In this document: positions 13,235 through 63,287 of the stretch, piece after piece
Position numbering within the stretch: position 1 is the stretch's first letter
How the letters are laid out: every line of letters starts with the position of its first letter
Assembly (NCBI GenBank): GCA_045805805.1
Contig: JBJMKO010000144.1
Location: forward strand, 629-64,628
Direction of reading: 5' to 3'
From: Solirubrobacterales bacterium
GTDB taxonomy: Bacteria; Actinomycetota; Thermoleophilia; Solirubrobacterales; 70-9
DNA length: 64,000 nt
Program-made: the position numbers and the translations under genes
Notes under the pieces: generated by a model
Seen by the model: only the letters and a program-made list of their open reading frames with translations
What the model was told of the DNA's origin: nothing
Databases searched by the model: none

Positions 13235-14164
13235 ATGGCTCGGCGCGGAAGGGCGACTGTCTTTGGTCCGCACCCGATGCTCTCGGTCACGGTCGAGGCG
13301 ATGACCGCAGACGGCGGTGACGACATCCACGTCCACGCCGCCGGACAGGGGGTCTGGGTGGCGCGGATGGCCGCCGAGCTGGGCGCCGACCCGGTCCTCT
13401 GCGGCTTCATCGGGGGCGAGACCGGGACCGTTCTGCGACCGCTGCTCGAGCAGATGGACGTGGAGCTGCGGTTGGTCGAGACGGCCGGGGCCAGCGGCTG
13501 CTACCTGCACGACCGCCGCTGCGGCGAGCGCAAGCCGATCGCCCAGAGCGCTGCCATGCCTCCGTCCCGTCACGAGATCGACGAGCTCTTCTCCGGCACC
13601 GTCGCCGCCGCACTCGATTCCGGGGTGCTGGCGCTCTGCGGTCCCTACCCGAGCGAGGCCCTTCCGCTGGAGATCTACGGCAACCTGGTCGGCGACGTGA
13701 AGGCGAATGGGACGCCGGTCGTGGTCGACCTCTCGCCCCCGCGACTTGACAGCGCCCTGGAGGGCGAGCCGGATCTGGTCAAGGTCAACGACTGGGAACT
13801 GGCCAAGTACGTCACCGGCCCGGTCGACACGGAGGAGCGGATGCGGGCCGCGGCGCAGCGGCTGCTGGACGCGGGCGCCGGCGCCGCGATCGTCACCCGC
13901 GCCGAGGAGCCGGCGATGGTCCTGCGCGGCGAGGAGGCGTGGATGCTGGTCCCGCCGCGCTTCGAGCGCGGCTCACGCGAGGGCTGCGGCGACTCGATGA
14001 TGGGCGCGCTCGCCGCCTGCATGGCCGCCGGCGTCGAGTGGGAGGAGATGCTGCGCACCGGCGCCGCGGCAGGCGCTGCCAACTTCCTCCGCCACGGCCT
14101 CGGCAGCGGCTCGCGGTCGGTGGTCGAGGACCTGGCGCAGCGGGTCGAGCTGCGCCCTCTCTGA
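13235..14164 (+). CDS. PfkB-family carbohydrate kinase (1-phosphofructokinase-like)
   Basis: 309 aa with ribokinase-fold layout and the C-terminal signature region EGCGDSMMGAL. Confidence 0.85.
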   Translation: MARRGRATVFGPHPMLSVTVEAMTADGGDDIHVHAAGQGVWVARMAAELGADPVLCGFIGGETGTVLRPLLEQMDVELRLVETAGASGCYLHDRRCGERKPIAQSAAMPPSRHEIDELFSGTVAAALDSGVLALCGPYPSEALPLEIYGNLVGDVKANGTPVVVDLSPPRLDSALEGEPDLVKVNDWELAKYVTGPVDTEERMRAAAQRLLDAGAGAAIVTRAEEPAMVLRGEEAWMLVPPRFERGSREGCGDSMMGALAACMAAGVEWEEMLRTGAAAGAANFLRHGLGSGSRSVVEDLAQRVELRPL

Positions 14165-14283
14165 GAGTCCACCCCGGCAGGGGTTCCGCTTAACTTTTTC
14201 GGTGGGGCGGGGATTTGCTTTGCGCTCGAAGGCGGCTGACGAAAAAGTACAAGACGCTCCACCCCTACCGGGGTGGACTCTCA
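14162..14283. repeat. family-1 nested-hairpin repeat, copy 1 (reverse orientation)
   Basis: Outer arms TGAGAGTCCACCCCGG (14162-14177) and CCGGGGTGGACTCTCA (14268-14283) are perfect. The core is GGGGTTCCGCTTAACTTTTTCG...CGAAAAAGTACAAGACGCTCCACCCC. Confidence 0.9.
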
Positions 14284-14999
14284 AACGGGACTGAGAGTTC
14301 TTGGCCGGTGACAATCGCTCTCGGGGCCACATCTCGCATCCACCCGAGGTGGGGCGCGACCGAATCGATCTCGGCGAGGGCCGTGAAGGCCTCGCGCATG
14401 TGGACCGGGCGGCCGCCGTGGGAAGAGTGGGCGTCGCTGCTCAGCACATGGACCAGGCCCGCTTCGGCCAGCGCTCGCATCCCGTCGGCGGTGCGCTCGC
14501 GCAGGAAGAAGTCAGCCGTCGCCTGCACCAGGGCGCCGGCGGCGACAAGCGCCCCGATCCGCTCGTACATGTCGGCCGAGAGGTGGCGCTCGGGGTGGGC
14601 GATCAAGGCCCGGTAGCCGCGTTCGGCGAGGTGGTCGACCCGCCGCGCCAGGCTGTCGCTCAGCGGCCCCGGTACCGGCTCCAGAAGGATCCAACGGCCG
14701 CTGCCCAGCGCAACCCGCCCGAGCTCCTCCTCGCCCAGCCCCTCGACCGCGGTCTCGGCCACCTCCCCACCCTGGAGGACAGTGACCGGGATGCCTTCCG
14801 CGCGCAGCCGCTCGTTCAGCCTCTCGACCCGACCGGCGATCTCCTCGATCCGCACATCGTGGTCGTGGCGGATGTGCGGGGTGGCGCAGATCGCCTCGAT
14901 CCCGTCGTTCACCGCCTGGCGGCCCATGCCGAGGCTGTCGCGGATATCGAGCGCGCCGTCGTCCAGCGCGGAAAGGATGTGGCAGTGCAGGTCGATCAA
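14265..14999 (-). CDS. CpsB/YwqE-type PHP-domain tyrosine-protein phosphatase
   Basis: 244 aa with the N-terminal MIDLHCHIL metal-binding motif and later ATPH and HPER motifs. The last 6 codons and the stop lie inside the right arm of repeat copy 1. Confidence 0.8.
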   Translation of the reverse strand: MIDLHCHILSALDDGALDIRDSLGMGRQAVNDGIEAICATPHIRHDHDVRIEEIAGRVERLNERLRAEGIPVTVLQGGEVAETAVEGLGEEELGRVALGSGRWILLEPVPGPLSDSLARRVDHLAERGYRALIAHPERHLSADMYERIGALVAAGALVQATADFFLRERTADGMRALAEAGLVHVLSSDAHSSHGGRPVHMREAFTALAEIDSVAPHLGWMRDVAPRAIVTGQELSVPFESPPR

Positions 15000-15110
15000 G
15001 GTGCAAACGCTCTTTCAGGCACAGCAGGGCAGGGGCATGGAACTACGATGACCGGCATGATCCAGCACCAGCTCTCGCAGGGCTTGCGAGCGCTTTGATG
15101 GGCTTCAACC

Positions 15111-15578
15111 GTGGATAAGAAAACGACCCGCAGAGGGAACTACGAGTCTGGCTCCGATTACGTGCTCGAGTACGGGGAGCTCCGCTTTGCCTTCAACGAG
15201 GGGGACTTCGGCCAGCGCGTCGAGCAAGCGGCGGTGAAGCTCGGCTTCGTCGACCAGGGGCTCAGCCCCGAGGAGCTCGACGACCTGCTCGACCTCGCCG
15301 TCAGCGGCGAGATCGCCGAGCCCAGCTCGCGCCTGGGCGAGCACATCAACGAGAACTGGGAGGACCTGGTCGGGCCGGCCAACCGCAGCCTCGTCCACTG
15401 GCTTCGCCGCCTCGTCTTTCGCGGTGCCTGGCTCGATCAGCGGGTCAAGGAGGGTGAGCTGGACGTCGTCTTCGACGGGCGCACCCAGACCTTCGGATAC
15501 GTGCAGCCCGATCGCAGCTCTGACCTGATCGAGCTCAGTAAAGAGCCGAGCTGGCGGCGTATTGCCTATAGGCGGTAG
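15111..15578 (+). CDS. hypothetical protein
   Basis: 155-aa ORF with a GTG start, acidic, no recognised family. Composition is noticeably less GC-rich than its neighbours. Confidence 0.55.
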   Translation: MDKKTTRRGNYESGSDYVLEYGELRFAFNEGDFGQRVEQAAVKLGFVDQGLSPEELDDLLDLAVSGEIAEPSSRLGEHINENWEDLVGPANRSLVHWLRRLVFRGAWLDQRVKEGELDVVFDGRTQTFGYVQPDRSSDLIELSKEPSWRRIAYRR

Positions 15579-15580
15579 GG

Positions 15581-15693
15581 ACGAGGCGCGGGGCAGGGGT
15601 TCCGCTTAACTTTTTCGAGAAGCGGGGATTGCTGGCGCTCTAACCGCACTTGCGAAAAAGTACAAGACGCTCCACCCCTGCCCCGCGCCTCGT
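15581..15693. repeat. family-1 nested-hairpin repeat, copy 2 (reverse orientation)
   Basis: Perfect 20-bp arms ACGAGGCGCGGGGCAGGGGT (15581-15600) and ACCCCTGCCCCGCGCCTCGT (15674-15693), with the same core as copy 1. Confidence 0.9.
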
Positions 15694-15737: not shown

Positions 15738-16541
15738 TCAGGACTGGCGCTCTAGGGCCGCTACTACGGTGAGGGTGCCTTTGGCTTGATTCAGGCCGCC
15801 GTCGAAGATCTGTTTTGCTGCGTCTGTCTCGTCCAGGCGGCTCAGGGAGTCGACGAGGAGGATCACGTCTTCGCCAGCGTCGGCTCGGCGCTTGGCTTGG
15901 GCCAGGGCGTCGCTGGCGTGGCGGGTCTTGCTTGCGGCGACCAGCTCGGCGTCGGGGGCCTCTCGCCTCCAGTCGGCCAGTTCCTCGGGGGTCGGGTCGA
16001 TCAGGAGGGCAATCGGGTCGGGGCCATTCGAGGCTCCGGCGAGCTCGCCTGCGATCTCGCGCAGGAGCGACGTGCAGGTGGCGCGGCTCTCGCCGTAGAC
16101 GAGGGCCTGGCGGCCGGGGGGCGGGAGCAGCAGGTCGTGGACGCTGAGGCCCTTGCTCTTGCGGCCGAAGCGGCGCCGGCGACGTTTGCGGCGCGGTCGC
16201 TCGGTCTCGGCGCCGGCGGCGGGCGGGACGGGCTCTGCGGCGGGCGGGACGGGCTCAGGCGTGGGCGCGGGGGCTGTGTCCTCTTTCGCAGGTCGATCCC
16301 TGGGGGGACGATCCCTGGACGGGCGATCCCCGGCGGGGCGCTCGCGGCGACGGCGCGGCGGCCGCTCGCGTTTCGGTGCTCCCTCGGGCCTCGGCTCCCG
16401 GCCCGACTTCGCCGGCTTGCCGTCGAGCAGCTTCTCGATCAGCTCCTCGCGGCGGAGCATCCGGTATCGGGGCACGCCCGCCTCGGCGGCGAGGGCGTGC
16501 AGCTCGGCGATGTGCTTGGACTCCAGTTCTGTCTTCGTCAT
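15738..16541 (-). CDS. Rho_N-domain protein with a degenerate Rho ATPase-like C-terminal region
   Basis: N-terminus KHIAELHALAAEAGVPRYRMLRREELIEKLL is a Rho_N helix pair. It is followed by an Arg/Pro-rich disordered segment. The C-terminus aligns by eye to the Rho RecA core (LLIDPTPEE, VILLVDSLSRL, GTLTVVAAL), but the P-loop is GESRATCTS. Confidence 0.75.
   Translation of the reverse strand: MTKTELESKHIAELHALAAEAGVPRYRMLRREELIEKLLDGKPAKSGREPRPEGAPKRERPPRRRRERPAGDRPSRDRPPRDRPAKEDTAPAPTPEPVPPAAEPVPPAAGAETERPRRKRRRRRFGRKSKGLSVHDLLLPPPGRQALVYGESRATCTSLLREIAGELAGASNGPDPIALLIDPTPEELADWRREAPDAELVAASKTRHASDALAQAKRRADAGEDVILLVDSLSRLDETDAAKQIFDGGLNQAKGTLTVVAALERQS
16216..16338. repeat. in-frame tandem repeats inside the Rho_N gene (2 x 21 nt, 3 x 15 nt)
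   Basis: 16216-16257 holds GCGGCGGGCGGGACGGGCTC(T/A) twice, coding EPVPPAA twice. 16294-16338 holds CGATCCC(T/C)GG..... three times, coding the (P/S)RDRP repeats. Confidence 0.8.
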
Positions 16542-20709: not shown

Positions 20710-22466
20710 CAGCCGTCCTCCGAGCGGTGAGTTCGTGTTTTTGCGTCCATATGGGCCCCAAAAGACGAACTCACCCGGGCTTGAAGAGCGGTGGCACCCT
20801 GCTCGGGGGTGATGACCCCCGGCAGGTCGAGGACGCGGGCCACCTCGGTGGCGAAGTACCAGCCGCCGGAGAGGATCTCGGTCGCCGGGCCGTCGGCGAT
20901 GACTACGCCGTCTCCGAGCAGGACGACGCGCTCGGCAAAGGTGGCGGCGAACTCGACGTCGTGGGTGGCGACGAGGAGACCGGCGCCGCGATCGGCGAGG
21001 TCGCCGATCAGCTCGACGAGGTCAGCCTTGCGGGCGCGGTCCATGCCGCGGGTCGGCTCATCGAGGGCGACGACTCCAGGGAGGCCTCCGCCGTCCATTC
21101 GCCCTGCCAGGGTTATCGTCAGCGCCAGCCGCTGCCGCTCACCTCCCGAGAGGTCACGCGGATCGGCGTCGATCGCGTGCTCCAAACCGACAAGCCGCAA
21201 GGCCGCAAGGCCGGCATCACTAGGAAGTTCGTCCCCGACGCGCTCCCGCACCAGGTAGTCGCTGGGGTTCTGTGTCAGCAGCGCGACACCAGCCGGCCCC
21301 TCGGCCTTGCCTCGGACTGGATCGATCAGTCCCGCAACGGTCTTCAAGAGTGTGCTCTTGCCTGCACCGTTGCGCCCCATGAGCGCAACCCGTTCACCCC
21401 GATGCACTTCCAGATCGATGCCCTTCAGGACATCGCGGTGCGCATCGCCCGAAGTGAGCTCGACCCAGAGGTCGGTTGACGTGAGGGTGGGATTTGAGGG
21501 GAGGCGGACCCCCTCCTCTCTCAACTTTTTCGGTGGGGCGGTGGTCTGTTTTCCTGGGCGGGTTGACGAAAAAGTACAAGCCGTTCGGAGGGGGTCCGCC
21601 TCCCCTCTATCGGCAGGCTCCGTTGACGTGAGAGTCCGGCGCGCGTCGCGGACCCCGACGGGCAGGGGTTCGATGCCGGCGAGAGAGAAGAGGCGCGCGG
21701 CGGGGGTCTCCAAAGCTTGGTCGGCCTCCTGCGCCCAGGTGAGGAAATCGCGGGGTCGGCCGTCGAAGGCGATCGAGCCGGAGTCCATCGCGATGACACG
21801 GTCGGCTGCGGCCAGGCAGCGCTCCAGTCGGTGCTCGGCCAACAGGATCGTTACCCCCCACTCCTCGTTTAGGCGGCGGAGGAGCCAGATCAGCTCGTCT
21901 CCCGCTACTGGGTCCAGCTGGGAGGTGGGCTCGTCGAGGAGGACCAGCTTCGGGCGGGTTACCAGGGCTGCGGCCAGGGCTACACGTTGGAGCTCCCCAC
22001 CCGAAAGGGTGTCCACGGCTCGGTTGAGCAGGTGGGGAATCGCCAGGGCGAGAGCCACCTCCTCCACCGCTCTCGCACGGGAGCTTGGTGAGTCTTCTCT
22101 CATCTCCAGGGGGAGCTCTATCTCGGCCGCGACCGTGGTCGAGACGACCTGGGTCTCCGGGTCTTGCGCCACGTAGCCGACTGCGGTGGCAAGCTCGCCC
22201 GGGCCGTTGGCTATCGCGTCGATGCCCGTCACCTCTACACGACCCTCGATCTCGCCGCCGTGGAAATGCGGGACGAGGCCGCAGGCGGCGCGGAGGAGAG
22301 TCGACTTGCCGCAGGCGGAGCGGCCGGCGAGGAGGACGAGCTCGCCCGGATCCAGGCGAAGTGAGACATCGCGGAGGGCCGGCTCGGAGGCGTTGGGATA
22401 GGCGTAGGTGAGGCCATCGACCGCCATGGCCGGGACGGCGCGCGTGGAGGTGGCGAGGTCAGGCAC
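20709..22466 (-). CDS. fused ECF transporter ATPase (EcfA-EcfA')
   Basis: Two ABC cassettes: Walker A GRSACGKST and GRNGAGKST, signatures LSGGELQR and LSGGERQR, Walker B LVLLDEPT and VVALDEPT. The GTG start at 22466 is preceded by GGGAGGAG. ATG 22427 is an alternative. Confidence 0.88.
   Translation of the reverse strand: MPDLATSTRAVPAMAVDGLTYAYPNASEPALRDVSLRLDPGELVLLAGRSACGKSTLLRAACGLVPHFHGGEIEGRVEVTGIDAIANGPGELATAVGYVAQDPETQVVSTTVAAEIELPLEMREDSPSSRARAVEEVALALAIPHLLNRAVDTLSGGELQRVALAAALVTRPKLVLLDEPTSQLDPVAGDELIWLLRRLNEEWGVTILLAEHRLERCLAAADRVIAMDSGSIAFDGRPRDFLTWAQEADQALETPAARLFSLAGIEPLPVGVRDARRTLTSTEPADRGEADPLRTACTFSSTRPGKQTTAPPKKLREEGVRLPSNPTLTSTDLWVELTSGDAHRDVLKGIDLEVHRGERVALMGRNGAGKSTLLKTVAGLIDPVRGKAEGPAGVALLTQNPSDYLVRERVGDELPSDAGLAALRLVGLEHAIDADPRDLSGGERQRLALTITLAGRMDGGGLPGVVALDEPTRGMDRARKADLVELIGDLADRGAGLLVATHDVEFAATFAERVVLLGDGVVIADGPATEILSGGWYFATEVARVLDLPGVITPEQGATALQARVSSSFGAHMDAKTRTHRSEDG
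20726..20775. repeat. family-2 palindromic repeat, copy B (inside the 3' end of the ATPase gene)
   Basis: GGTGAGTTCGT (20726-20736) and ACGAACTCACC (20765-20775) are perfectly complementary. The reverse complement matches copies A and C at both termini (TTCGTCTTTTGG...AAACACGAACTCA). Confidence 0.7.
21496..21607. repeat. family-1 nested-hairpin repeat, copy 3, in frame inside the ATPase gene linker
   Basis: Perfect 21-bp arms GAGGGGAGGCGGACCCCCTCC (21496-21516) and GGAGGGGGTCCGCCTCCCCTC (21587-21607). The core keeps AACTTTTTCGGTGGGGCGG...GACGAAAAAGTACAAG. It is flanked by GTTGACGTGAG at 21475-21485 and 21622-21632. Confidence 0.85.
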
Positions 22467-25111: not shown

Positions 25112-25139
25112 TTAAGCCACCCTTTCCTCGAGGGTTGTC

Positions 25140-25312
25140 ATGGCTGGCCGGGGACAGGTCTCCTGGCTCCCGGGGTTTGTCGGCCGCACCTTCCCGGGGA
25201 ATCGGTGTCCTCCCCAGTGGCCGGCGCCATAGCGCCTGCGGCTTCCTTGACCCGGTCACAGTGGCGGGACCGCGCCGGCTTCTCACCGGACTTCCCTTGA
25301 CCACCGACCGTA
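25140..25312 (-). promoter_or_regulatory. cobalamin (B12) riboswitch
   Basis: The reverse strand reads GGTCGGTGGTCAAGGGAAGTCCGGTGAGAAGCCGGCGCGGTCCCGCCACTGTGACC...GGCCACTGGGGAGG...CCCCGGGAAGGTGCGG...GAGCCAGGAGACCTGTCCCCGGCC. The conserved GGGAA/GGTG/CCCGCCACTG elements and the B12 box (AGCCAGGAGACCTG) are all present. It lies 30-200 nt upstream of the 25111 start. Confidence 0.85.
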
Positions 25313-25521
25313 TTTACGCGGGCGAGTCTATCCCGCTCCGGCGCCCCCGTGCGTCCGGCCCCCGAGACTCCCCAGCCAAGCTATCGGTCGGCGGGAATCG
25401 GGGGGCCAGGATGGCCGCCCGGATTCGGCCGACCGCTGAACGTTCGTCCAGCATTCTTTGCCTCCCCCCGGGCCGGGTCTAGGCTCGCCGCGGCAAGCCG
25501 GTCCTAGCAGAGGGGGAGAAG

Positions 25522-26220
25522 ATGAGGCAGGGAAAGCGACTTCCGTCACCAGGGTTCGCGATCGCGGTGCTGGCACTGTTCATGACGCTCGGAGGCACCG
25601 TCTACGCAGCGCAGAAGGCGAAGATCAGCGGCCGTGCGATCAAGGTGAAGTCGCTGCCCGGCAACCGGCTGAAGCCGGGCACGATCGCGATCGACCGGCT
25701 CAGTCCAGCAGCGATCTCCTCCCTCCACGCCCAGGGCTCGGGCCCGATCACGGGCGCCGAAATCGACGAGCTGAGCCTCGGCCAGGTCCCTGAGGCAGCC
25801 CACGCCGAGACAGCCAACACAGCCCTAAGCGCCGTGGAAGCCGAGACCGCCCTCAACGCCGTAAACGCGGTCAACGCCACCACCGTCAACGGCTACGAAG
25901 CGGGCTGCCTACCAGGCACCCAACCCTTCGCCGGAGCCTGCTGGCAAACCTCCGCCAGCGAAACAGCCCTAAACGCCCCAGCCGCTGCCACATCCTGCGC
26001 AACCCAAGGCGGCACCCTCCCCGAACCCCTACAGCTCTCAGCCTTCGCCCAACAACCAGGAGTAATCCTCGACAAAGCTGACGAGTGGACTGGTGATATC
26101 ACCAGTTACACCGCACCCGACCTCTACAGCGTCGGAACAGTCTCCGCGGCGGGAGTCGTCGCCTCGACATCATCAGCCAACACCAGAAAGTTCCGCTGCG
26201 TGATCCCACTGCTCACCTGA
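25522..26220 (+). CDS. hypothetical secreted/membrane-anchored protein
   Basis: 232 aa with an N-terminal anchor FAIAVLALFMTLGG, Ala/Asn/Thr-rich repeats (ALSAVEAETALNAVNAVNATTVNG) and a Cys-containing C-terminal domain. No family recognised. Confidence 0.6.
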   Translation: MRQGKRLPSPGFAIAVLALFMTLGGTVYAAQKAKISGRAIKVKSLPGNRLKPGTIAIDRLSPAAISSLHAQGSGPITGAEIDELSLGQVPEAAHAETANTALSAVEAETALNAVNAVNATTVNGYEAGCLPGTQPFAGACWQTSASETALNAPAAATSCATQGGTLPEPLQLSAFAQQPGVILDKADEWTGDITSYTAPDLYSVGTVSAAGVVASTSSANTRKFRCVIPLLT

Positions 26221-26244: not shown

Positions 26245-26353
26245 GGCCGGCCCGGCAGGGGTGGAGCGTCTTGTACTTTTTCGCGAGCAACGCTTGAGCG
26301 CCAGCAATCCCGGCCTCTCGAAAAAGTTAAGCGGAACCCCTGCCGGGCCAGCC
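26245..26353. repeat. family-1 nested-hairpin repeat, copy 4 (forward orientation)
   Basis: Arms GGCCGGCCCGGCAGGGG (26245-26261) and CCCCTGCCGGGCCAGCC (26337-26353) pair at 16/17, with 13 consecutive perfect. Full core GGGGTGGAGCGTCTTGTACTTTTTCG...CGAAAAAGTTAAGCGGAACCCC. Confidence 0.9.
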
Positions 26354-47685: not shown

Positions 47686-47768
47686 TGCCGGAGGCGGGAG
47701 TCGAACCCGCACGCCCTTGCGAGCAATTGATTTTGAATCAATCGTGTCTACCGTTCCACCACTCCGGC
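47686..47768 (-). tRNA. tRNA-Leu (anticodon CAA)
   Basis: Reverse complement GCCGGAGTGGTGGAACGGTAGACACGATTGATTCAAAATCAATTGCTCGCAAGGGCGTGCGGGTTCGACTCCCGCCTCCGGCA. Confidence 0.9.
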
Positions 47769-48685: not shown

Positions 48686-50661
48686 GCACCGGGACCCCCG
48701 AGAAGCTCTGGGAACCCTCCGCGGAGCTGGTCGAGCGCTCGCGCCTGCGCGAGTACATGCGCTGGCTCGAAGCCGAGCGCGGGCTGAAGCTCGATGACTA
48801 TGAGGCCCTGTGGCGCTGGTCGGTGTCCGACCTCGACGGCTTCTGGTCCTCGATCTGGGACTTCTTCGGCGTCCAGGCCGACGGCGGCTACGAGCGGGTG
48901 CTCGGCAGCCGCGAGATGCCCGGCGCGGAGTGGTTCGCCGGCACCAGCCTCAACTACACCGAGCACGTCTTCGCCGGTAAGGAGGACGGCACCGAGGCGG
49001 CGATCCTGCACGCCTCGGAGCTGCGCGAGCTCGGCGAGCTGAGCTGGGGCGAGCTGCGTGCCCAGGTGGCCGCGACCGCGGCCGGGCTGCGCGCGCTCGG
49101 GGTCGAGCGCGGCGACCGCGTCGTCGCTTACATGCCCAACATCCCCGAGGCGATCGTCGCCTTCCTCGCCACCGCGAGCATCGGCGCGGTCTGGTCGAGT
49201 TGCTCGCCCGACTTCGGCCCGGCGAGCGTGATCGACCGCTTCGCCCAGATCGAGCCCAAGGTGCTCTTCGCGGTCGACGGCTACCGCTATGGCGGCAAGG
49301 ACTTCGACCGGCGCGAGACGCTTGCCCAGCTGCAGGCGGCGATACCAAGCCTGGTGCGCACGGTCGTCCTCCCCTACCTCGACGCCGAGCCAGATCTCAC
49401 CGGGCTGCGCGACGCGATGCGCTGGGAGGAGCTGCTCGTCGACGGCGAAGGAGCCGACCTGACATTCGAGCGCGTCCCCTTTGACCACCCGCTCTGGGTG
49501 CTCTACTCCTCCGGGACGACTGGCCTGCCGAAGGCGATCGTGCAGTCGCAGGGCGGCATCCTGCTCGAGCACCTGAAGAAGCTCCACCTCCACGTCGACG
49601 CCCATCCCGGCGACCGCCTCTTCTGGTTCACCACGACGGGCTGGATGATGTGGAACTTCCTCGTCTCCGGCCTGCTGACCCGGGCCGCGATCGTCCTCTA
49701 CGACGGCAATCCCGGCCACCCGGGCATGGGCGTGCTCTGGGACCTCGCCGAGCGCGCCGGGGTGACGATGTTCGGCACCAGCGCCTCCTACATCGCCGCC
49801 TGCATGAAGGCGGGCGCCGAGCTCGGGGGCGGCCGCGACCTCAGCCGCCTGAAAGCGGTCGGATCGACCGGCTCCCCCCTCTCCCCCGAGGGCTTCGACT
49901 GGATCTACGAGCACCTCGGTGCCGACACCTGGCTCTTCTCCACCAGCGGCGGAACCGACCTCTGCACCGCTTTTGTCGGCGGCGTCGCCCTATTGCCGGT
50001 CTACCGCGGCGAGCTGCAGGGACGCGCCCTCGGCGCCGCGGTCGAGGCCTGGGACGAGGACGGCAACTCGGTGATCGACGAGGTCGGCGAGCTGGTCGTC
50101 ACCGAGCCGATGCCCTCGATGCCCATCCGCTTCTGGGGGGACGACGACGGCAGTCGTTACCGGGCGAGCTACTTCGAGCACTACCCCGGCGTCTGGCGCC
50201 ACGGCGATTGGATCGAAATCACTTCGCGCGACACCGCCGTCATCTACGGCCGCTCGGACTCGACGATCAACCGCTCGGGCATCCGCATGGGAACGAGCGA
50301 GATCTACCGCGCCGTGCTCGGCCTGAACGAGATCATCGACGCGCTCGTCGTCGACGTCCCCCGCCCGGGAACAGAGGGCTGGATGCCGCTCTTCGTCGTC
50401 CTCCGCGAGGGCGCCGAGCTCAACGACGACCTGCGCAAGGAGATAGCCCGCCGCGTCCGCAGCCAGTGCTCCCCCCGCCACGTCCCCGACGAGGTCTTCC
50501 AGATCACTGAAGTCCCACGCACCCTCAGCGGCAAGGTCCTTGAGGTGCCAGTCAAGCGAATCCTGACGGGCACACCACCGGAGCAGGCCGCAAGCCGCGA
50601 CTCGCTTACCAACCCAGCCTCCCTCGACTACTTCGTCGACCTGGCCGCCTCGCTCGACTAG
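48682..50661 (+). CDS. acetoacetate-CoA ligase (acetoacetyl-CoA synthetase)
   Basis: GTG 48682 overlaps the MBL gene stop (GTGA). LWEPSAELVERSRLREYMRWLE is a typical acetoacetyl-CoA synthetase N-terminus. AMP-binding motif YSSGTTGLPKAI. Confidence 0.9.
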   Translation: MSTGTPEKLWEPSAELVERSRLREYMRWLEAERGLKLDDYEALWRWSVSDLDGFWSSIWDFFGVQADGGYERVLGSREMPGAEWFAGTSLNYTEHVFAGKEDGTEAAILHASELRELGELSWGELRAQVAATAAGLRALGVERGDRVVAYMPNIPEAIVAFLATASIGAVWSSCSPDFGPASVIDRFAQIEPKVLFAVDGYRYGGKDFDRRETLAQLQAAIPSLVRTVVLPYLDAEPDLTGLRDAMRWEELLVDGEGADLTFERVPFDHPLWVLYSSGTTGLPKAIVQSQGGILLEHLKKLHLHVDAHPGDRLFWFTTTGWMMWNFLVSGLLTRAAIVLYDGNPGHPGMGVLWDLAERAGVTMFGTSASYIAACMKAGAELGGGRDLSRLKAVGSTGSPLSPEGFDWIYEHLGADTWLFSTSGGTDLCTAFVGGVALLPVYRGELQGRALGAAVEAWDEDGNSVIDEVGELVVTEPMPSMPIRFWGDDDGSRYRASYFEHYPGVWRHGDWIEITSRDTAVIYGRSDSTINRSGIRMGTSEIYRAVLGLNEIIDALVVDVPRPGTEGWMPLFVVLREGAELNDDLRKEIARRVRSQCSPRHVPDEVFQITEVPRTLSGKVLEVPVKRILTGTPPEQAASRDSLTNPASLDYFVDLAASLD

Positions 50662-50775
50662 AGCCCATCCCGGTAGGGGTGGAGCGTCTTGTACTTTTTC
50701 GCGAGCGCGGTTCGAGCGCCAGCAATCCCCGCTCCTCGAAAAAGTTAAGCGGAACCCCTACCGGGATGGGCTCTA
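50659..50775. repeat. family-1 nested-hairpin repeat, copy 5 (forward orientation)
   Basis: Perfect 22-bp arms TAGAGCCCATCCCGGTAGGGGT (50659-50680) and ACCCCTACCGGGATGGGCTCTA (50754-50775), with the full core. Both flanking stop codons lie in the arm tips. Confidence 0.92.
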
Positions 50776-52293
50776 CGCCGGAGTAACCGGATTACGCCGC
50801 TCGGCGAACGCCCGGCCCTTGCTCGCCGCCATCGCGAAGCGCTTGATCAGGTCATCGCGCAGGTCGGTTGGCTCGACGACCGCGTCGACGACCAGCTCCG
50901 AGGCGAGGTGGAGGATGTCGATGTCCTCGGCGTATTCCTCGCGCTTGGCGGCGACGAACGCCTCGCGCTCAGCCTCGTCCTCAATTGCCTGGATCTGGTT
51001 GTAGAAGACGGCATTGATCGCCGCCTGTGGACCCATCACCGCGATCGAGGCGCTGGGCAGGGCGATGCAGCAGTCCGGCTCGAAAGCAGGACCGGCCATC
51101 GCGTAGAGGCCGGCGCCGTAGGCCTTGCGGACGACCACCGAGATCTTCGGCACGGTCGCTTCGGAGACGGCGCTGATCATCTTCGCCCCGTGGCGGATGA
51201 TCCCCTGGCGCTCGACCGCGGTGCCGATCATGAAGCCCGGCACGTCGGCGAGGAAAAGCAAGGGGACATTGAAGGCATTGCAGGTCTGGATGAAGCGGGC
51301 CGCCTTGTCGGCGGAGTCGACGAAGAGGACGCCGCCGGTGTGCTTGGGCTGGTTGGCGACGATTCCGATCGCGCGCCCGTCGAGGCGTCCGTAGCCGACG
51401 ATCAGCTCCTTCGCCCAGCGCTTGTGGACCGCCAGGAAGCTGTCGGCGTCCAGCAACGAGTCGAGTAGCTGCTGCATGTCGAAGGGTTGGTTCTCGTCGG
51501 AAGGCAGGATCTCGGCGATCGAAGTGTCCGATGCCGGCTCGGCGACCGGCGCGGCGGGTGGTTCCTCTCGCCAGTTGCCCGGCATGAAGGAGAGGTAGCG
51601 CTTGGCCAGGTCGATCGCCTCCTCGTCGGACTTGACGAGGAAATGGCCGCAGCCGGAGACGCCGGTGTGCATCTTGGCCCCGCCCATCTCCTCCAGGCTG
51701 ACCTTCTCGCCGATCACCATCTCGGCCATCCGCGGCGACCCCAGGTACATCGAGGCGTTGCCGTCGCGCATGATCACCGCGTCGCAGAAAGCCGGGATGT
51801 AGGCGCCGCCGGCTGCGCTGGGGCCGAAGAGCAGGCAGACCTGCGGCACCTGGCCGGAAAGCCGCACCTCGTTGTGGAAGATCCGCCCGGCGCCACGGCG
51901 CCCGGGAAACATCTGCACCTGGTCGGTGATCCGCGCCCCGGCCGAGTCGACCAGGTACAGGATTGGGATCCGCAGGGAGAGCGCCCGTTCCTGGATGCGA
52001 AGGATCTTCTCGACGGTCTTCGGGCCCCATGAGCCGGCCTTGACGGTCGGATCGTTGGCCATCAGAGCGGCGCGGCGGCCATCGATCCTCGCCAGGCCGG
52101 TTACGACGCCATCGGCCCCCAGTCCCTCCTCGTCCCAGTTCGCCAGTGCCGCCTCCTCGGCGAAGGAGCCGGGGTCGACGAGCCGCGCGACCCGCTCGCG
52201 CACCGGCAGCTTGCCCTGCTCCGCGGTCTTCTCGTGATGGCGCTGCGGGCCCCCCGCGAGAGCCGCCTTGAGCGCCTTCTGGAAGTCGGACAT
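50773..52293 (-). CDS. acyl-CoA carboxylase carboxyltransferase (beta) subunit, methylcrotonyl-/propionyl-CoA type
   Basis: 506 aa with tandem crotonase-like carboxyltransferase domains (ANDPTVKAGSWGP, GPSAAGGAYIPA, VRKAYGAGLYAM). Confidence 0.9.
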   Translation of the reverse strand: MSDFQKALKAALAGGPQRHHEKTAEQGKLPVRERVARLVDPGSFAEEAALANWDEEGLGADGVVTGLARIDGRRAALMANDPTVKAGSWGPKTVEKILRIQERALSLRIPILYLVDSAGARITDQVQMFPGRRGAGRIFHNEVRLSGQVPQVCLLFGPSAAGGAYIPAFCDAVIMRDGNASMYLGSPRMAEMVIGEKVSLEEMGGAKMHTGVSGCGHFLVKSDEEAIDLAKRYLSFMPGNWREEPPAAPVAEPASDTSIAEILPSDENQPFDMQQLLDSLLDADSFLAVHKRWAKELIVGYGRLDGRAIGIVANQPKHTGGVLFVDSADKAARFIQTCNAFNVPLLFLADVPGFMIGTAVERQGIIRHGAKMISAVSEATVPKISVVVRKAYGAGLYAMAGPAFEPDCCIALPSASIAVMGPQAAINAVFYNQIQAIEDEAEREAFVAAKREEYAEDIDILHLASELVVDAVVEPTDLRDDLIKRFAMAASKGRAFAERRNPVTPA

Positions 52294-56649: not shown

Positions 56650-57287
56650 AAGCGACCGCGGTCCTACCGGTGAAGCGCTTCGGCGCCGCCAAGCAGCGGC
56701 TCGCCGCCGGCATCGACGACGAGCGCCGCAGCGCAGTGGTGGCCGCGATGCTCGGAGACGTGCTGGAGGCGATCGGCGAGGCGCGGTCGATCGAGCGGAC
56801 GATCGTCGTCACCAGCGAGCCGTCGGCCTTGGAGCTGGCCGCCGAGGCGGGAGCCGAGGTGCTCCCGGACCCCGACGAGGGCGGGCACTCCGGCGCGGCT
56901 CTTGCCGGGATCGCTCGCGCGCGCGAGCTGGGCGCCGGCTGCGTCGTCCTCCTCCCCGGCGACTGCCCGCTGCTCGACCCACGCGAGCTCGAACGGCTGC
57001 TGACCGGAATGCCGGAGCGCTTCGTCGCCGTCGTCCCGGACCGGCACGGGACGGGTACGAACGCCCTGGCGCTGGCACCGCCCGATGCGATCCACCCCAG
57101 CTTCGGCGAGGGCAGCTGCGCCCGGCACGTCGCCGGCGCCCGCGAGGCCGGCGTGCCCTACGCCGTCGAGGAGCTGCCGTCGCTCGCCCTCGATCTCGAC
57201 ACCCCTGCGGACGTGGTCGCCCTCACCCGGGCGCTGGCGGAACAGCCGGGACGGGCAAGGCGGACCGCAAAGGCGCTCGGCATATGA
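56646..57287 (+). CDS. cofC: phospho(enol)lactate guanylyltransferase CofC/FbiD
   Basis: 213 aa with a TTG start overlapping the cofD stop. Has AVLPVKRFGAAKQRL and LPGDCPLL. Confidence 0.85.
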   Translation: MKATAVLPVKRFGAAKQRLAAGIDDERRSAVVAAMLGDVLEAIGEARSIERTIVVTSEPSALELAAEAGAEVLPDPDEGGHSGAALAGIARARELGAGCVVLLPGDCPLLDPRELERLLTGMPERFVAVVPDRHGTGTNALALAPPDAIHPSFGEGSCARHVAGAREAGVPYAVEELPSLALDLDTPADVVALTRALAEQPGRARRTAKALGI

Positions 57288-58102
57288 GCGAGCTGCGGGT
57301 TTTCGCGGTCGACGGCCTGCCGGAGATCGAGACCGGGACGAACCTCGGCGAGCTGATCGCGTCGCGGGCGGAGCTTCTCAACGGGGACGTCGTGGTGGTC
57401 TCTCAGAAGGTCGTCTCCAAGGCAGAGGGACGGGTGCGGCGACTCTCCACGGTAGTCCCCGGCGCCGAGGCTCACCGTCTCGCCGCCGAGCTTGGCAAGG
57501 AGCCGGCCATGGTCGAGCTGACCCTGGAAGAGAGCCGCGAGGTGCTGCGAGCCGAGCGTGGCGTCCTGATCACCGAGACCTACCACGGCTTCGTCTGCGC
57601 CAACGCCGGCATCGACAGCTCCAACCTCCCTGAGGCAGACACCGTCTGCCTGCTCCCCGAGGACCCCGACGCCTCGGCCCGCAATCTAAGAGTCGAAATC
57701 GCCTCCGCAGTGACGAAGGAGCATGGGGTGGGACTCGCCGGACACCCAGCGCGAAGCGCGTCCGCCGAGTCCCACCCCATGCTCCCCCCAACCCTCGCGG
57801 TAGTGATCGGCGACAGCTTCGGCCGCGCTTGGCGCCTCGGCCAAACCGAGGCAGCAATCGGCTGCGCCGGCCTGACCCCGCTGGACGACTGGCGCGGCCG
57901 AAGCGACTCGCACGGGCGCAAGCTGGAAGCCACGATGATCGCCATCGCCGACGAGGCCGCCGCAGCCGCCGACCTCGTCCGCGGCAAGGACAGCCGCGTC
58001 CCGGTCGCGATCGTCCGCGGCTTGGACCGCTTTATCACTGTCGACGACGGCCCCGGCGCAATAGCGCTACGCAGACCTCGAGACGAAGACCTCTTCCGCT
58101 GA
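57284..58102 (+). CDS. cofE: coenzyme F420-0:L-glutamate ligase (single-domain CofE type)
   Basis: 272 aa with VVVVSQKVVSKAEGR, CANAGIDSSN and IGDSFGRAWRLG. There is no C-terminal nitroreductase-like domain. Confidence 0.88.
   Translation: MSELRVFAVDGLPEIETGTNLGELIASRAELLNGDVVVVSQKVVSKAEGRVRRLSTVVPGAEAHRLAAELGKEPAMVELTLEESREVLRAERGVLITETYHGFVCANAGIDSSNLPEADTVCLLPEDPDASARNLRVEIASAVTKEHGVGLAGHPARSASAESHPMLPPTLAVVIGDSFGRAWRLGQTEAAIGCAGLTPLDDWRGRSDSHGRKLEATMIAIADEAAAAADLVRGKDSRVPVAIVRGLDRFITVDDGPGAIALRRPRDEDLFR
57718..57785. repeat. perfect 20-bp inverted repeat (28-nt spacer) inside the cofE coding sequence
   Basis: GGAGCATGGGGTGGGACTCG (57718-57737) pairs with CGAGTCCCACCCCATGCTCC (57766-57785). 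The spacer adds a further CGGAC/GTCCG stem. Translated as KEHGVGLAGHPARSASAESHPMLP. Confidence 0.9.
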
Positions 58103-58104: not shown

Positions 58105-58220
58105 CCGGAACCATCCCGGTAGGGGTGGAGCGTCTTGTACTTTTTCGCGGCGCGGTTCGGGCGCCGGCAATCCCCGCTCCTCGAAAAAGTTAAGCGGAAC
58201 CCCTGCCGGGATGGTCCCGG
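58105..58220. repeat. family-1 nested-hairpin repeat, copy 6 (forward orientation)
   Basis: Arms CCGGAACCATCCCGGTAGGGG (58105-58125) and CCCCTGCCGGGATGGTCCCGG (58200-58220) pair at 19/21, with the full core. It starts 3 nt after the cofE stop. Confidence 0.9.
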
Positions 58221-58233
58221 CCCCCGCATCGGA

Positions 58234-59004
58234 CTACGGCAGAACCGACTCCAGCTTTTCTTCGGCGGCCGGCTCGACCCTGACCGCCACGCAATCGTCT
58301 TCGGAGATGACCTGTTCGAGCAGGTCGCCGACATCGCCGAACTTCCCTTCGAGCTGGATTTCGCTTTCGCTGCCATCGCGCCCGACGCGCCGGATCACGA
58401 TCTCGACTTCGGCCTCCTCGGAGGGGATCGCCTCCGCTACGAACCTGATGGTTACTTCGTATTCGTCCCCTTCACAGCCCGGTTGTGGTTCGACTTCGAC
58501 CACCGCCGTGCCTGGACCGCCCGCGCCACCGCCGTCGGCGACGACCGTCTGCGGGGGCGGCGGAGCTTCGGGCGGGAGCGCCGGTTGACTCGAGACCGGT
58601 GGCTCCAGCTCCGACGCGGGCGGAGATGGAGATGGAGTCGCAACGGTGCTCACCACGCGGGCCTGGGCGAGCGCCAGGGTGGACCCGGACCCGTCCGCTG
58701 CAGGCACCCGCTCAACCGCCACCGGGACGGCATGGGCAAGGCCTTCTCCCCCCGCGCCGGCCGGGCGAGAGGGCGGGTCGGGTGTGATCGCCACCGCGTC
58801 GCCGAGTGCCGCGGTCCCGAGCACAACGCTGAGGTGGGGATCGACGGAGTCGGCCTCCCAGGGTCGCAGGCCGGCCAGCGCGACGAAAGCGAGCACCAGC
58901 ACCAAGCCCAGCAGCGAGAAGACCGCTAGACCAGGAAATCCCCCATCCCCAACTGGCGAGCGCGAAGCGATTGCCGAAAGATAGTCGCTAAGGGCCCAGG
59001 TCAA
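58234..59004 (-). CDS. hypothetical membrane-anchored protein
   Basis: 256 aa with one TM (FPGLAVFSLLGLVLVLAFVALAG), a Pro-rich linker and an acidic C-terminal domain. No family recognised. Confidence 0.5.
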   Translation of the reverse strand: MTWALSDYLSAIASRSPVGDGGFPGLAVFSLLGLVLVLAFVALAGLRPWEADSVDPHLSVVLGTAALGDAVAITPDPPSRPAGAGGEGLAHAVPVAVERVPAADGSGSTLALAQARVVSTVATPSPSPPASELEPPVSSQPALPPEAPPPPQTVVADGGGAGGPGTAVVEVEPQPGCEGDEYEVTIRFVAEAIPSEEAEVEIVIRRVGRDGSESEIQLEGKFGDVGDLLEQVISEDDCVAVRVEPAAEEKLESVLP

Positions 59005-62123: not shown

Positions 62124-62206
62124 TATCTCTCCTCCTAGATGCCGTAATTCGACTGGGGCGGCGCCAGTCTACCCAGATTGACCGAATGAAATAGGTTCCC
62201 GGCCAG

Positions 62207-63163
62207 ATGAAGGGGGTTGTCGCGCTGCTGGCGGCCGCCCTGCTGCTCACCGGCGCCGCCGGTTGCGGCGGGGACGGCGCTGAACCGGGCGCGCCTGTCG
62301 GCGCGACGCTGGTGCTCGACTTCACCCCGAACCCGGCCCATGCCGGGATCTACTCGGCTCAGCACGAGGGCTACTACCGCGACGCCGGAGTCGACCTGAC
62401 GATCCGCCAGCCCGGCGAATCGACCGACGCGCCGAAGCTGCTGGAGGCGGGCCGCGCGGACTTCGCCATCCTCGACATCCACGACCTGGGGATCGCCCGC
62501 GAGCGCGGCCTCGACATCGTCGGCACGATGCCGATCGTGCAACGGCCTCTCGCCGCCGTGATCGCCCACGGCGGCGACGGCGTGACCAGGCCCCGGGACC
62601 TGCAGGGCCGGACCGTGGGCGTGACCGGCCTGCCCTCCGACGAAGCGGTGGTCGACTCCGAGGTCAGCGCCGACGGCGGCGACCCGGCCAATGTGAAGCG
62701 GGTGACGATCGGCTTCAACGCGATCTCTTCGCTAGCTGCGGAAAAGGTCGACGCGGCGACCGGCTTCTGGAACGCCGAGGGCGTGACGCTGCGCCAGCAG
62801 GGCGTACCGATCGAGGTCTTCAAGGTCAACGAATACGGGGCGCCGCCATACCCCGAGCTGGTCCTGGTCGCCTCGCGGGGGACGATCGACCAAGACCCGG
62901 AGCTGGTTCGGTCGGTGGTCGATGCGACGAAGCGGGGTTACGGGTTCACGGTGGATCATCCGAAGCAGGCCCTCGACGATCTCCTCGCCGAAGTGCCAAG
63001 CCTCAGCCGCGCCGACGAGCGGGCGCAGCTTGCGGCCCTCTTGCCCGATCTGCATCCTGAGCCGTTCGATCTTGCTGTGCTGCGGGCTTGGGCCGCGTGG
63101 GATCTGAAGCATGGGTTGCTGGAACGACCCTTGGACGTGGAAGCGGCTTTTGCTGAACCTTGA
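62207..63163 (+). CDS. ABC transporter substrate-binding lipoprotein (NMT1/THI5-like)
   Basis: Lipobox LLLTGAAGCG, then LVLDFTPNPAHAGIYSAQHEGYYRDAGVDLTI, typical of the NMT1/THI5-like (SsuA/ThiY) fold. Confidence 0.8.
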   Translation: MKGVVALLAAALLLTGAAGCGGDGAEPGAPVGATLVLDFTPNPAHAGIYSAQHEGYYRDAGVDLTIRQPGESTDAPKLLEAGRADFAILDIHDLGIARERGLDIVGTMPIVQRPLAAVIAHGGDGVTRPRDLQGRTVGVTGLPSDEAVVDSEVSADGGDPANVKRVTIGFNAISSLAAEKVDAATGFWNAEGVTLRQQGVPIEVFKVNEYGAPPYPELVLVASRGTIDQDPELVRSVVDATKRGYGFTVDHPKQALDDLLAEVPSLSRADERAQLAALLPDLHPEPFDLAVLRAWAAWDLKHGLLERPLDVEAAFAEP

Positions 63164-63171
63164 TCGGGGTG

Positions 63172-63287
63172 GGGGCTGGGGTGGCCTCGCCTGCGCGCTG
63201 GGTTTTTCGCCGCAGCGTTGCTTGCGCTCGTTGAGGGGATAGGGCGAAAAACAAGACGCCGCGCGCAGGCGAGGCCACCCCAGCCCC
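63172..63287. repeat. family-1 nested-hairpin repeat, copy 7 (diverged core, reverse orientation)
   Basis: Perfect 27-bp arms GGGGCTGGGGTGGCCTCGCCTGCGCGC (63172-63198) and GCGCGCAGGCGAGGCCACCCCAGCCCC (63261-63287). The core retains TTTTTCG...TTGCTTGCGCTCG...CGAAAAACAAGACGC. Confidence 0.8.

Follow-up and report, generated by a model that had tools for sequence, protein, structure and literature searches.

A lineage-restricted family of dispersed hairpin repeats at gene ends in Solirubrobacterales

What are the seven structured repeats that lie scattered over a 64,000-nt stretch of a Solirubrobacterales genome (contig JBJMKO010000144.1 of assembly GCA_045805805.1; G+C ~69%; hereafter the window), and how did they come to stand at the ends of unrelated genes? 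Solirubrobacterales are abundant, mostly uncultured soil actinobacteria with compact genomes, and to our knowledge nothing has been reported on gene punctuation in this order. A first-pass annotation of the window had described a conserved core flanked by outer arms that differ between copies and are self-complementary within each, and it had left three options: (a) a small element that inserts into the apex of existing hairpins, (b) an element whose second arm is copied from the first and (c) a structured RNA or bidirectional terminator family. Here, we find that the seven repeats are members of an undescribed, lineage-restricted dispersed hairpin family of Solirubrobacterales (class Thermoleophilia). 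The reading that we favour, with moderate confidence, is that of a REP/TRIT-like dispersed hairpin repeat, the core of which is read in trans as a folded single strand.

A dispersed hairpin with a conserved middle module

The claim of seven copies, with their positions and orientations (Table 1), was confirmed by sequence, alignment and covariance model, and the alignment also reproduced the proposed core. The motif CTTGTACTTTTTCG occurs six times exactly in the window, and allowing up to three mismatches gave eight matches against 0.71 expected, while CGAAAAAGTTAAGCGGAACCCC has five exact occurrences against none expected. A covariance model built from 121 aligned family members, with which the whole window was scanned with filters off, recovered exactly the seven copies and nothing else above 28 bits. 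The five main copies score 106.7–114.7 bits, copy 21496 (copies are named by their first position) scores 92.5 and copy 63172 scores 54. Since the opposite strand of each copy reaches only 33–45 bits, against 54–115 bits on its own strand, the repeat is a hairpin with a defined orientation and not a true palindrome. Every copy folds into a single hairpin (−62 to −87 kcal/mol, z −5.6 to −10), and none of 200 dinucleotide shuffles per copy folded as well as the real sequence. The arm-pairing counts of the first-pass annotation agree with these folds, apart from where the stem boundary is drawn. The basal stems of Table 1 are read from these folds; otherwise, arm lengths come from alignment-based and strict-chain counts, because folding with 50–60 nt of flanking DNA lengthened the stems by chance pairing.

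A scan with the core pattern CTTGTACTTTTTCG-N25-55-CGAAAAAG, using one genome per species, showed that the family is present well beyond the window, with at least 117 loci, nearly all in metagenome-assembled genomes (MAGs) of Solirubrobacterales/Thermoleophilia. Loci from other genomes that were compared with the window carry L-numbers. Among the matches listed, all come from MAGs except the chance matches L034 and L063; their labels are mostly Solirubrobacterales, in a few cases Thermoleophilia, Actinomycetes or Actinomycetota, and for one MAG Chloroflexota. The chromosome-level records among the matches listed measure 1.6–3.0 Mb, most of them 2.5–3.0 Mb. The viral contigs scanned with the core pattern gave no match. 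The extrapolation to hundreds of copies per genome is not established: close relatives have two to three copies per 12–21 kb, other family loci about one extra copy per 60–75 kb, and three related contigs (L122–L124, 59 kb in total) have none. Closer relatives were obtained through homologues of proteins flanking the window copies; the carboxyltransferase homologues were too conserved for choosing close relatives by identity. At the Rfam gathering threshold, only a cobalamin riboswitch and seven tRNAs were detected in the window, with no family for the repeat, and the best sub-threshold match on a copy, mir-1296 with 27 bits against a threshold of 100, is a chance one. Nothing relevant was found in the literature on palindromic repeats in Solirubrobacterales or on actinobacterial RAYT.

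Each copy is one long imperfect hairpin composed of a variable basal stem, an invariant asymmetric middle module and a variable apex. The basal stem has 20 bp in the common alignment, in which columns 6–25 pair with columns 112–131, and 20–29 bp across the window copies. In the 121 aligned copies, 94.5% of these cells are paired, and all 20 aligned pairs have changed on both sides and covary. Over the whole model, 96.5% of cells hold standard pairs, compared with 74.3% in column shuffles and 37–57% with slid partners, and 849 cells are changed on both sides, compared with 238 in shuffles. Arm complementarity is thus better than in shuffled sequence, with very strong covariation.

The middle module contains a 3×3 internal loop, G26 G27 A28 / G109 G110 A111, with the oppositions G26.A111 and A28.G109 conserved in 97 and 111 of the 121 copies, respectively. 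It also contains an R29-Y108 pair (G-C in 64 copies, A-U in 49 and A.C in one), C30-G99, fixed unpaired bases, U34-A98, U35-R97, a U bulge, the wobble G36.U96 (kept in 120 of 121 copies) and a 9-bp A/U-rich stem, ACUUUUUCG/CGAAAAAGU. The left core half accordingly runs from the internal-loop GGA through the R-Y pair and bulges to the 5' strand of the A/U-rich stem. Several columns outside the search pattern are near-invariant (G31 in 121 of 121 copies, C30 in 120, G109 in 117 and A28 in 111), and the mismatches and bulges of the core are identical in all 121 copies. The apex, 33–40 nt long, is variable, with a weak G-N3-GC motif in which G63, G67 and C68 are each at least 90% conserved, and apices fall into a handful of classes that recur in different genomes. 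A second subfamily, to which copy 21496 belongs, has a different junction (...CCGAACGG / GTTGAGAGAGG...).

Three further readings of the core were tried and rejected. Covariation between G27 and G110 (a G.G to A.A switch) was weak (64/18/14/13) and was dropped; a K-turn in the GGA/GGA loop was ruled out, the loop being symmetric (3×3) with no 3-nt bulge; and a promoter carried by the element was dismissed, TTGTAC being a possible −35 box but the variable apex lacking a conserved −10. Irregular copies were also seen. At L019 (7200–7740), two full copies in opposite orientation lie 400 nt apart, together with a partial right half; at L108 (~4850), a partial second right half (GTTAAGCGGAACCCCC) immediately follows a full copy; and at L086 (~7440–7470), there is an 8-nt duplication within the right core.

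The arms are variable, but they are not unrelated between copies. Across genomes, their consensus approximates (T)AGAGCCCATCCCGGTAGGGG, with conservation fading outward, and the part next to the core has the family-wide consensus CCCGGYAGGGG. Over 20 nt of arm, identity among the five main window copies ranges from 0.50 to 0.90, against a family background of 0.49, reaching 0.90 between copies 50659 and 14162 and 0.85 between copies 50659 and 58105. Given that paralogous copies share arms to this extent and that a family consensus exists, the arms travel with the element. The description of the arms as copy-specific therefore holds for their complementarity within each copy, but not in the sense of unrelated sequences: they are diverged, compensated variants of one consensus.

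Which form of the element is constrained can be read from the mispairs. Strict-chain counts over the basal stems gave 2509 Watson–Crick pairs, 83 G.T/T.G and 19 A.C/C.A. The excess of wobbles is found where the element is antisense-read (34:6), where it is sense-read (19:4) and between convergent genes (18:7), and thus follows the orientation of the element itself; taken with the conserved wobble G36.U96, it indicates that the folded sense strand is the constrained form. Local GC skew is negative in the element-sense orientation for 74 of 121 copies (p=0.0014), which gives a weak hint of a link between the element and the replication strand.

The same data bear on the idea that the repeat is a site in double-stranded DNA, in which the A/T-rich half-sites ACTTTTTCG ... 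CGAAAAAGT, ~35 bp apart, would bind a nucleoid-associated or topological protein and the arms would be a by-product. IHF and gyrase bind BIME/REP. An A/T-rich core stands out in a genome of ~69% G+C, and the mixed orientation with respect to the neighbouring genes is what one would expect of such a site, for which CREE offers a precedent, IHF binding Correia elements (PMC2649163). However, a duplex site has no need for 20–29 bp of maintained arm complementarity or for a conserved G.U, and it leaves the strand-specific wobble bias unexplained, which makes it a very unlikely account.

How the arms stay paired is a separate matter. In 47 same-orientation orthologous pairs of copies, there are 225 two-sided Watson–Crick differences and 113 one-sided ones; this, along with the covariation of all 20 pairs, bears out the view that pairing is kept through compensated change. 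Among 46 two-sided pairs, compensated changes of transversion type (124) are as common as those of transition type (98), a signal that is partly an artefact of gapless alignment across symmetric indels. In close relatives, compensated change in the outer arms proceeds at a rate similar to that of four-fold sites. Since stepwise compensation by way of G.U would favour transitions and run slower than neutral, arm-to-arm template switching in DNA probably contributes to arm pairing; quasipalindrome template-switch mutation is an established mechanism (PMC7202029).

It could then be proposed that intrastrand template switching at replication, by which one arm is re-copied from the other, maintains the palindrome alone, with no need for selection on a folded molecule. 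The rate of change in the outer arms, the excess of double over single differences and the transversions, with the caveat given above, would fit, as would the inversion of the element at the same site described below. Template switching would, however, erase the universal mismatches and bulges of the core, which do not vary among 121 copies from species whose synonymous divergence is saturated, and it predicts no bias of G.T over A.C, compared with the observed 83:19. It is thus not the whole story, and we consider it unlikely to be a sufficient one: option (b) fails for the core, although such copying may contribute to the outer arms.

Turnover at orthologous sites

The window shares synteny with several of the loci, and relatedness was measured as four-fold-site divergence from the window in the CpsB gene adjacent to copy 14162. 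It is 0.20–0.24 for L118, L120 and L121 and ~0.41–0.46, near saturation, for L082 and L073. At the 14162 site, copies with an identical core are present in the window, L118, L120, L121 and L082, and their outer 8 bp differ by two to four substitutions, each of them compensated (GAGAGTCC, GAGGGCCC, GAGGCTCC, GCCTCTCC and GAAGGCCT). L073 has at this site an unrelated plain 17-bp hairpin (CGTTTCCACCCTTTTGG...), which resembles the hairpin at 3243–3301 of the window.

The 15581 site is the most varied. Full same-orientation copies are found in the window, L120, L121, L047 and L073, a decayed half copy (GGGGTTCCGCTTAACTTTTTCG and part of the apex) in L082 (3790–3850), and a clean empty site of 5 nt in L118, which reads TAG-CCGGG-C-TTCA between two stops. 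The arms of the window copy and of the L120 copy are almost identical, while their apices are unalignable: the window apex is 89% identical to that of its window paralogue 50659, unlike the apices of L120 and L121, which share another one. These two copies also have the inner stem CTTTTTTG...CAAAAAAG instead of CTTTTTCG...CGAAAAAG, a compensated change from C-G to U-A in an A/U-rich stem that is otherwise invariant.

At the 26245 site, L080 is empty, with a short plain hairpin (GCCGCTggatAGCGGC) in place of the element, and L076 carries a copy in the opposite orientation. The same gene pair that flanks copy 50659 is 15 nt apart in L122, with no element, and the ligase and the CofH-like gene at the 58105 site are 22 nt apart in L123, again with no copy. 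The empty site of L118 leaves no room for a stem, and that of L122 allows a stem of at most 4 bp. Beside the L076 copy lies ~2.6 kb of extra DNA (4535–7177), which encodes an XRE-type helix-turn-helix (HTH) protein and winged-helix-like open reading frames (ORFs), with no transposase seen.

Presence and absence thus differ between genomes at the sites of copies 15581, 26245, 50659 and 58105. At a given site, copies persist with an intact core, vanish cleanly or partly, appear inverted or have their apex exchanged for the form typical of their genome's other copies. The family is therefore dispersed and evolutionarily mobile, and the occurrence of copies at many non-orthologous sites implies spread by a copy-and-insert process.

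Is the whole hairpin the mobile unit? In option (a), the mobile unit would be the core and apex only, entering the loop of existing gene-end hairpins or of older copies, so that the arms would be those of the target. The plain hairpin at the empty L080 site fits this proposal, as do hairpins without the core at gene ends (window 3243–3301 and 39434–39463, and L073 at the 14162 site) and the 15581 site, where the apex class changed and the arms stayed orthologous. Moreover, apices, not arms, are significantly more alike within genomes: apex identity is 0.673 within and 0.621 between genomes, a difference reached in 0 of 1000 permutations, and arm identity is 0.514 and 0.487, reached in 129 of 1000. 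On the other hand, the arms share the family consensus both near the core and further out, window paralogues have arms in common (0.85–0.90), and the empty L118 and L122 sites, of 5 and 15 nt, offer no stem or a minimal one. In addition, gene conversion via the two invariant core halves explains apex replacement equally well. Insertion into apices thus gains from the L080 hairpin and the apex swap at the 15581 site and loses by the shared arms and the short empty sites, and on balance we doubt it.

Placement at gene ends and within a coding sequence

For gene calling, we trained a codon log-odds caller on the loci; its coverage of the window is 86%, against 52% for the earlier GC3-threshold caller that it replaced. 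Copies survive almost only against stop codons, chiefly between convergent genes, and once in a protein linker. In 96 of 113 intergenic copies (85%), a gene stop lies inside the stem or at most 20 nt from it. Stop codons are often the outermost stem bases, and other stops coincide with TAG or TAA triplets that the element itself supplies in frame, for example the TAG at −16/−17 in GGTAGGGG. Copy 50659 occupies the entire spacer between its convergent neighbours, whose TAG stops (50659–50661 and, on the minus strand, 50773–50775) pair together as its outermost bases. At copy 14162, the TGA stop of the kinase forms the first stem bases, and the stop of the phosphatase is the TAG of GGTAGGGG, 16 nt inside the stem. 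Within the window, copies 14162, 15581, 26245 and 50659 lie between convergent genes, copy 63172 follows a gene end and copy 21496 is in a gene (Table 1).

Over the family, 38 copies were observed in convergent, 60 in co-directional and 8 in divergent spacers, against 17.4, 52.9 and 35.7 expected from spacer length (chi-square p=7e-11), so convergent spacers are enriched and divergent ones depleted. Copies in co-directional spacers lie close against the stop of the upstream gene and tens of nt away from the start of the following one, with median distances of ~60 nt on the 5' side of the element and ~30 nt on its 3' side. These data suggest that the element is tolerated, and possibly useful, only at gene ends.

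Table 1. Positions and properties of the seven window copies, of the modules of copy 50659 and of the gene that carries copy 21496
Feature	Coordinates	Strand	Type or sequence	Model score and fold	Basal stem	Neighbouring genes
Copy 14162	14162..14283	−	Main subfamily, apical class D	110.3 bits; −67.7 kcal/mol, z −8.7	23 bp, including one G.U	Convergent: pfkB-family kinase 13277–14164 (+), CpsB/CapC phosphatase 14265–14999 (−); Pfam
Copy 15581	15581..15693	−	Main subfamily, apical class D	112 bits	20/20	Convergent: 155-aa ORF 15111–15578 (+), Rho_N-domain gene 15738–16541 (−)
Copy 21496	21496..21607	−	Subfamily 2, arm ...CCCCCTCCGAACGG / GTTGAGAGAGGAGGGGG...	92.5 bits	21/21	
Copy 26245	26245..26353	+	Main subfamily, apical class D	106.7 bits; z −5.6	17 pairs and one mismatch	Convergent: ORF 25567–26220 (+), LuxR-type response regulator 26360–27070 (−)
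Copy 50659	50659..50775	+	Nearest to family consensus	114.7 bits; −75.3 kcal/mol, z −9.8	22/22	Convergent: acetyl-CoA-synthetase-like gene 48682–50661 (+), carboxyltransferase 50773–52293 (−); Pfam
Copy 58105	58105..58220	+	Main subfamily, apical class D	108.4 bits	21 pairs and one mismatch	Upstream: F420-0:gamma-glutamyl ligase 57284–58102 (+), stop 3 nt before copy; Pfam
Copy 63172	63172..63287	−	Divergent, GCGTCTTGT-TTTTCGCC ... GGCGAAAAACCC	54 bits, E 5.9e-09; −86.6 kcal/mol, z −10	29 bp	Preceding: NMT1/THI5-like gene 62207–63163 (+), stop 9 nt before copy; Pfam
Module 1a, left basal arm	50659..50680	+	TAGAGCCCATCCCGGTAGGGGT; pairs with 50754–50775			
Module 2a, left core half	50681..50701	+	GGA-GC-GTC-TTG-T-ACTTTTTCG			
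Module 3, apical stem-loop	50702..50736	+	G-N3-GC motif, here GAGCGCCAGC			
Module 2b, right core half	50737..50753	+	CGAAAAAGT-TAAG-C-GGA			
Module 1b, right basal arm	50754..50775	+	ACCCCTACCGGGATGGGCTCTA			
Fused ECF-transporter ATPase	ORF 20709–22466/22667	−	Two ABC_tran domains			

Such placement recalls terminators, and the first-pass annotation had stated that the repeat is neither a classical miniature inverted-repeat transposable element (MITE) nor a plain terminator. Both parts of this statement were borne out. A classical MITE has conserved terminal inverted repeats, whereas the termini are the most variable part of this element. A canonical intrinsic terminator is rejected because no U-tract follows the hairpin, the 10-nt tails not being T-rich, and because the order on both strands is U5, apical hairpin, A5, the reverse of an intrinsic terminator.

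A broader form of option (c), in which the repeats would be immobile, host-encoded 3' elements (structured RNAs or bidirectional terminators) inherited vertically and changing by compensatory substitution only, draws on the very strong covariation, the tight placement at stop codons, the persistence of orthologous copies with an intact core and the precedent of TRIT (PMC3152330). Nevertheless, independent origin cannot explain an identical core of 50 nt at many unrelated sites, and presence and absence differ between sites, with 59 kb of related contigs devoid of copies. One copy lies within a coding sequence, and copies follow genes in both orientations, the antisense one being commoner (40 antisense and 20 sense relative to the preceding gene in co-directional spacers). 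Considering also the missing U-tract and the reversed layout, an immobile element is in our view highly improbable.

Other features of the intergenic regions deserve mention. Copy 58105 is probably convergent with an unannotated ORF, 58234–59004 (−), of 256 aa and with no Pfam match, the start of which overlaps the stop of the CofH-like gene by 4 nt; the ORF is absent from the orthologous ligase–CofH junction in L123, and an overlapping plus-strand ORF, 58135–58929, is an alternative, doubtful call. Two hairpins of the window lack the family core. One, at 3243–3301, stands at the end of gene 3315–4967 (−), where arms that pair perfectly over 18 bp (GGGTGCCCTCCCCAAAAC / GTTTTGGGGAGGGCACCC) enclose an inner G+C hairpin; its A4...U4 polarity is that of a canonical bidirectional terminator, opposite to that of the repeat family. 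The other, at 39434–39463, is a short G+C-rich hairpin (GCGAAGGCCCCGG-gttt-CCGGGGCCTTCGC) with no T-tail, just downstream of the stop of gene 39025–39408 (+) and inside the 3' end of the overlapping convergent gene 39401–40483. The seven tRNA genes form three clusters, 35393–35686 (Glu, Leu), 43829–44002 (Pro, Gly) and 46834–47768 (Trp, Leu, Leu), and none of them adjoins a repeat copy. Protein P0121, a homologue of the carboxyltransferase at 50773–52293, has 693 aa, 187 aa above the norm of 506 aa.

Copy 21496 is part of a gene and not intergenic: a fused energy-coupling factor (ECF) transporter ATPase carries it in frame, in the linker that joins its two ABC_tran domains (Pfam), where it is translated as ...DPLRTACTFSSTRPGKQTTAPPKKLREEGVRLPS... 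The operon is of the ECF type, on the minus strand, headed by a cobalamin riboswitch (25136–25320, minus strand, 74.3 bits), and comprises DUF4430, DUF4430, CbiQ, the fused double-ABC ATPase with the copy and an ECF_trnsprt-like gene. L102 has a copy at this site in the same orientation, and L118, L121, L033 and L080 have one in the opposite orientation. The reading frame is open through the element in either orientation, as our translations of the window, L102, L033 and L080 show; the gene table of L118 has one 587-aa ORF across the element, and that of L121 splits the region into different ORFs. Among the 120 closest protein homologues, 104 match the sense-peptide motif and at least three the antisense peptide, and most of the remainder are diverged sense forms. 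No empty linker allele was found in these 120: all carry an element-derived segment, half-deleted in two. Such repeats can thus become a stable part of a protein.

The orientation of the copy in the ATPase follows the arm sequence and the immediate flanks, not overall relatedness: the window is 84% identical to L033, which has the opposite orientation, and 78% identical to L102, which has the same one. In the window only, an 11-nt direct repeat (CTCACGTCAAC, 21469–21632) brackets the copy; its members are 147 nt (49 codons) apart, appear in the protein as TLTST...TLTST and may represent a target duplication. Where the copy is inverted in other genomes, its flanks resemble an inverted repeat.

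The favoured reading and known repeat systems

If the repeat is indeed a REP/TRIT-like element read in trans, the middle module would be the recognition site of a putative trans-acting factor, most likely a protein, that would recognise the sense strand in its folded form, either as single-stranded DNA or as RNA. The arms could then drift freely while paired, with selection keeping the pairing, probably aided by arm-to-arm template switching, and gene conversion, with the conserved core halves as its anchors, may keep the apices of one genome alike. At gene ends, the element might act as a stable 3' hairpin, insulating transcription units that converge or shielding the 3' ends of mRNAs, and not as a canonical U-tract intrinsic terminator.

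Several observations weigh against this reading. Comparisons of filled with empty sites gave no consistent target-site duplication of fixed length. No recognisable Y1/HUH transposase was found in 1.08 Mb of flanking DNA, a weak test that relied on tblastn with an IS608 TnpA query and on a motif regular expression; its sole hit (E=0.54), beside the L076 copy, is the XRE-type HTH ORF and is spurious. The wobble bias has two caveats, as a single column supplies 22 of the alignment-based G.U counts and copies at orthologous sites do not count as independent. Repeated gene conversion, rather than selection at each site, could account for the conserved core at old orthologous sites. The 40:20 antisense excess fits poorly with a sense-RNA function in cis, and the absence of a U-tract and the reversed order of U-run and A-run do not favour a role in termination. 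Finally, Term-seq in Mycobacterium tuberculosis found that TRITs overlap little with real 3' ends (bioRxiv 10.1101/2022.06.01.494293), and for this reason a termination role is treated here as conjecture. Two further searches were also negative: the Pfam lists of L118–L124 include no transposase domain, and a search of the loci for solo core halves flanking a long insert yielded nothing but one truncated copy, two partial copies and matches by chance in coding DNA.

Apex replacement, inversion and the strand-tied wobble bias are the features that might hide something new. The core could be the handle of a structure-specific machinery that recognises the folded sense strand and, within hairpins, moves or converts the core–apex cassette alone, a sort of hairpin-apex homing, for which an HUH-type or other single-strand DNA enzyme or an RNA-binding factor could be candidates. 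We rate the probability of this as low. If true, it would explain the genome-specific apices on orthologous arms, the in-place inversion and the strand-tied wobble bias, and it would amount to a way of spreading that has not been described for REP, MITE or TRIT elements.

One conserved hairpin module stands at the stops of many unrelated genes, with its core constant across an order-level radiation. The family offers a handle on how long palindromes are kept and exchanged in bacterial genomes. From a practical standpoint, the covariance model marks gene ends and can aid the annotation of these MAGs, in which the repeats are likely break points of short-read assemblies.

The family is a new one of a known general kind, that of REP/REPIN, Correia and ERIC repeats, with the mycobacterial TRIT as its closest analogue. 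ERIC/IRU sequences of enterobacteria are ~125-bp imperfect palindromes with a conserved central region, found in transcribed intergenic regions in either orientation, and we know of no transposase for them; unlike the present repeats, they are conserved over their whole length and are not tied to stop codons. Integron attC sites were rejected as a match. GTTAAGC fits GTTRRRY but lies inside the hairpin, with 20–29 further paired bases outside it, the partner strand CTTGTAC fails RYYYAAC, and the flanking genes are syntenic housekeeping genes, not cassettes.

REP/REPIN/BIME elements, mobilised by RAYT/TnpA-REP, are similarly extragenic, reach high copy numbers and form single long hairpins of ~100 nt (PMC3116915, PMC8266576); compensatory two-sided changes are common in them, and singlets and truncated remnants occur. 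The present family shares the extragenic, multi-copy long hairpin with compensatory changes. For REPINs, recognition in the form of single-stranded hairpins by an HUH enzyme with strand specificity has been proposed (PMC3116915, PMC8266576). However, REPINs conserve their terminal REP units, small palindromes with a 5' tetranucleotide, for example GTAG, and vary in the spacer, whereas here the middle is conserved and the ends vary. The core halves are not self-palindromic, and GTAG, present in many arms (CCGGTAGGGG), is paired and variable (UA 42, CG 19, GC 20). A RAYT partner was not found near the present copies, within the limits of the weak test described above.

The CREE/NEMIS repeats of Neisseria are intergenic palindromic repeats of 100–155 bp with inverted repeats around a conserved core, and their presence differs between strains (PMC2649163). 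They fold as hairpins in transcripts and are acted on by IHF and RNase III (PMC2649163). They differ by conserved 26-bp terminal inverted repeats, TA target duplication and promoter creation, none of which was seen here. Rickettsia palindromic elements are in-frame, translated repeats in genes, like copy 21496 (PMC1166351, PMC1458961). This likeness is confined to one of the seven window copies, the other six being intergenic, and the family at large is overwhelmingly intergenic. The taxon is a different one and the sequence presumably unrelated, and the present coding copy occurs in both orientations with the frame open.

TRIT has 147 copies, palindromic and bidirectional, whose centre lies ~8 nt within the coding sequence, and those who described it proposed that an unknown factor binds the conserved stem (PMC3152330). 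Like the present family, it is a lineage-restricted, conserved hairpin of a high-G+C actinobacterial lineage, with ~150 copies per genome in the case of TRIT; it is palindromic, readable both ways, narrowly placed at or inside the stop codon, and lacks a canonical U-tract. A palindromic, bidirectional hairpin tightly placed at the stop codon is likewise what we find here. The taxon differs, Mycobacterium against Solirubrobacterales, which makes the present family an analogue of TRIT and not a member; the two were compared by description, and Rfam has no family for TRIT. The element described here is longer and is conserved in an asymmetric middle module between a variable basal stem and a variable apex, and presence/absence, inversion, apex replacement and a coding copy are documented for it. 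It thereby offers a handle on a probable lineage-specific 3'-end or termination factor, the same question that TRIT has raised in mycobacteria.

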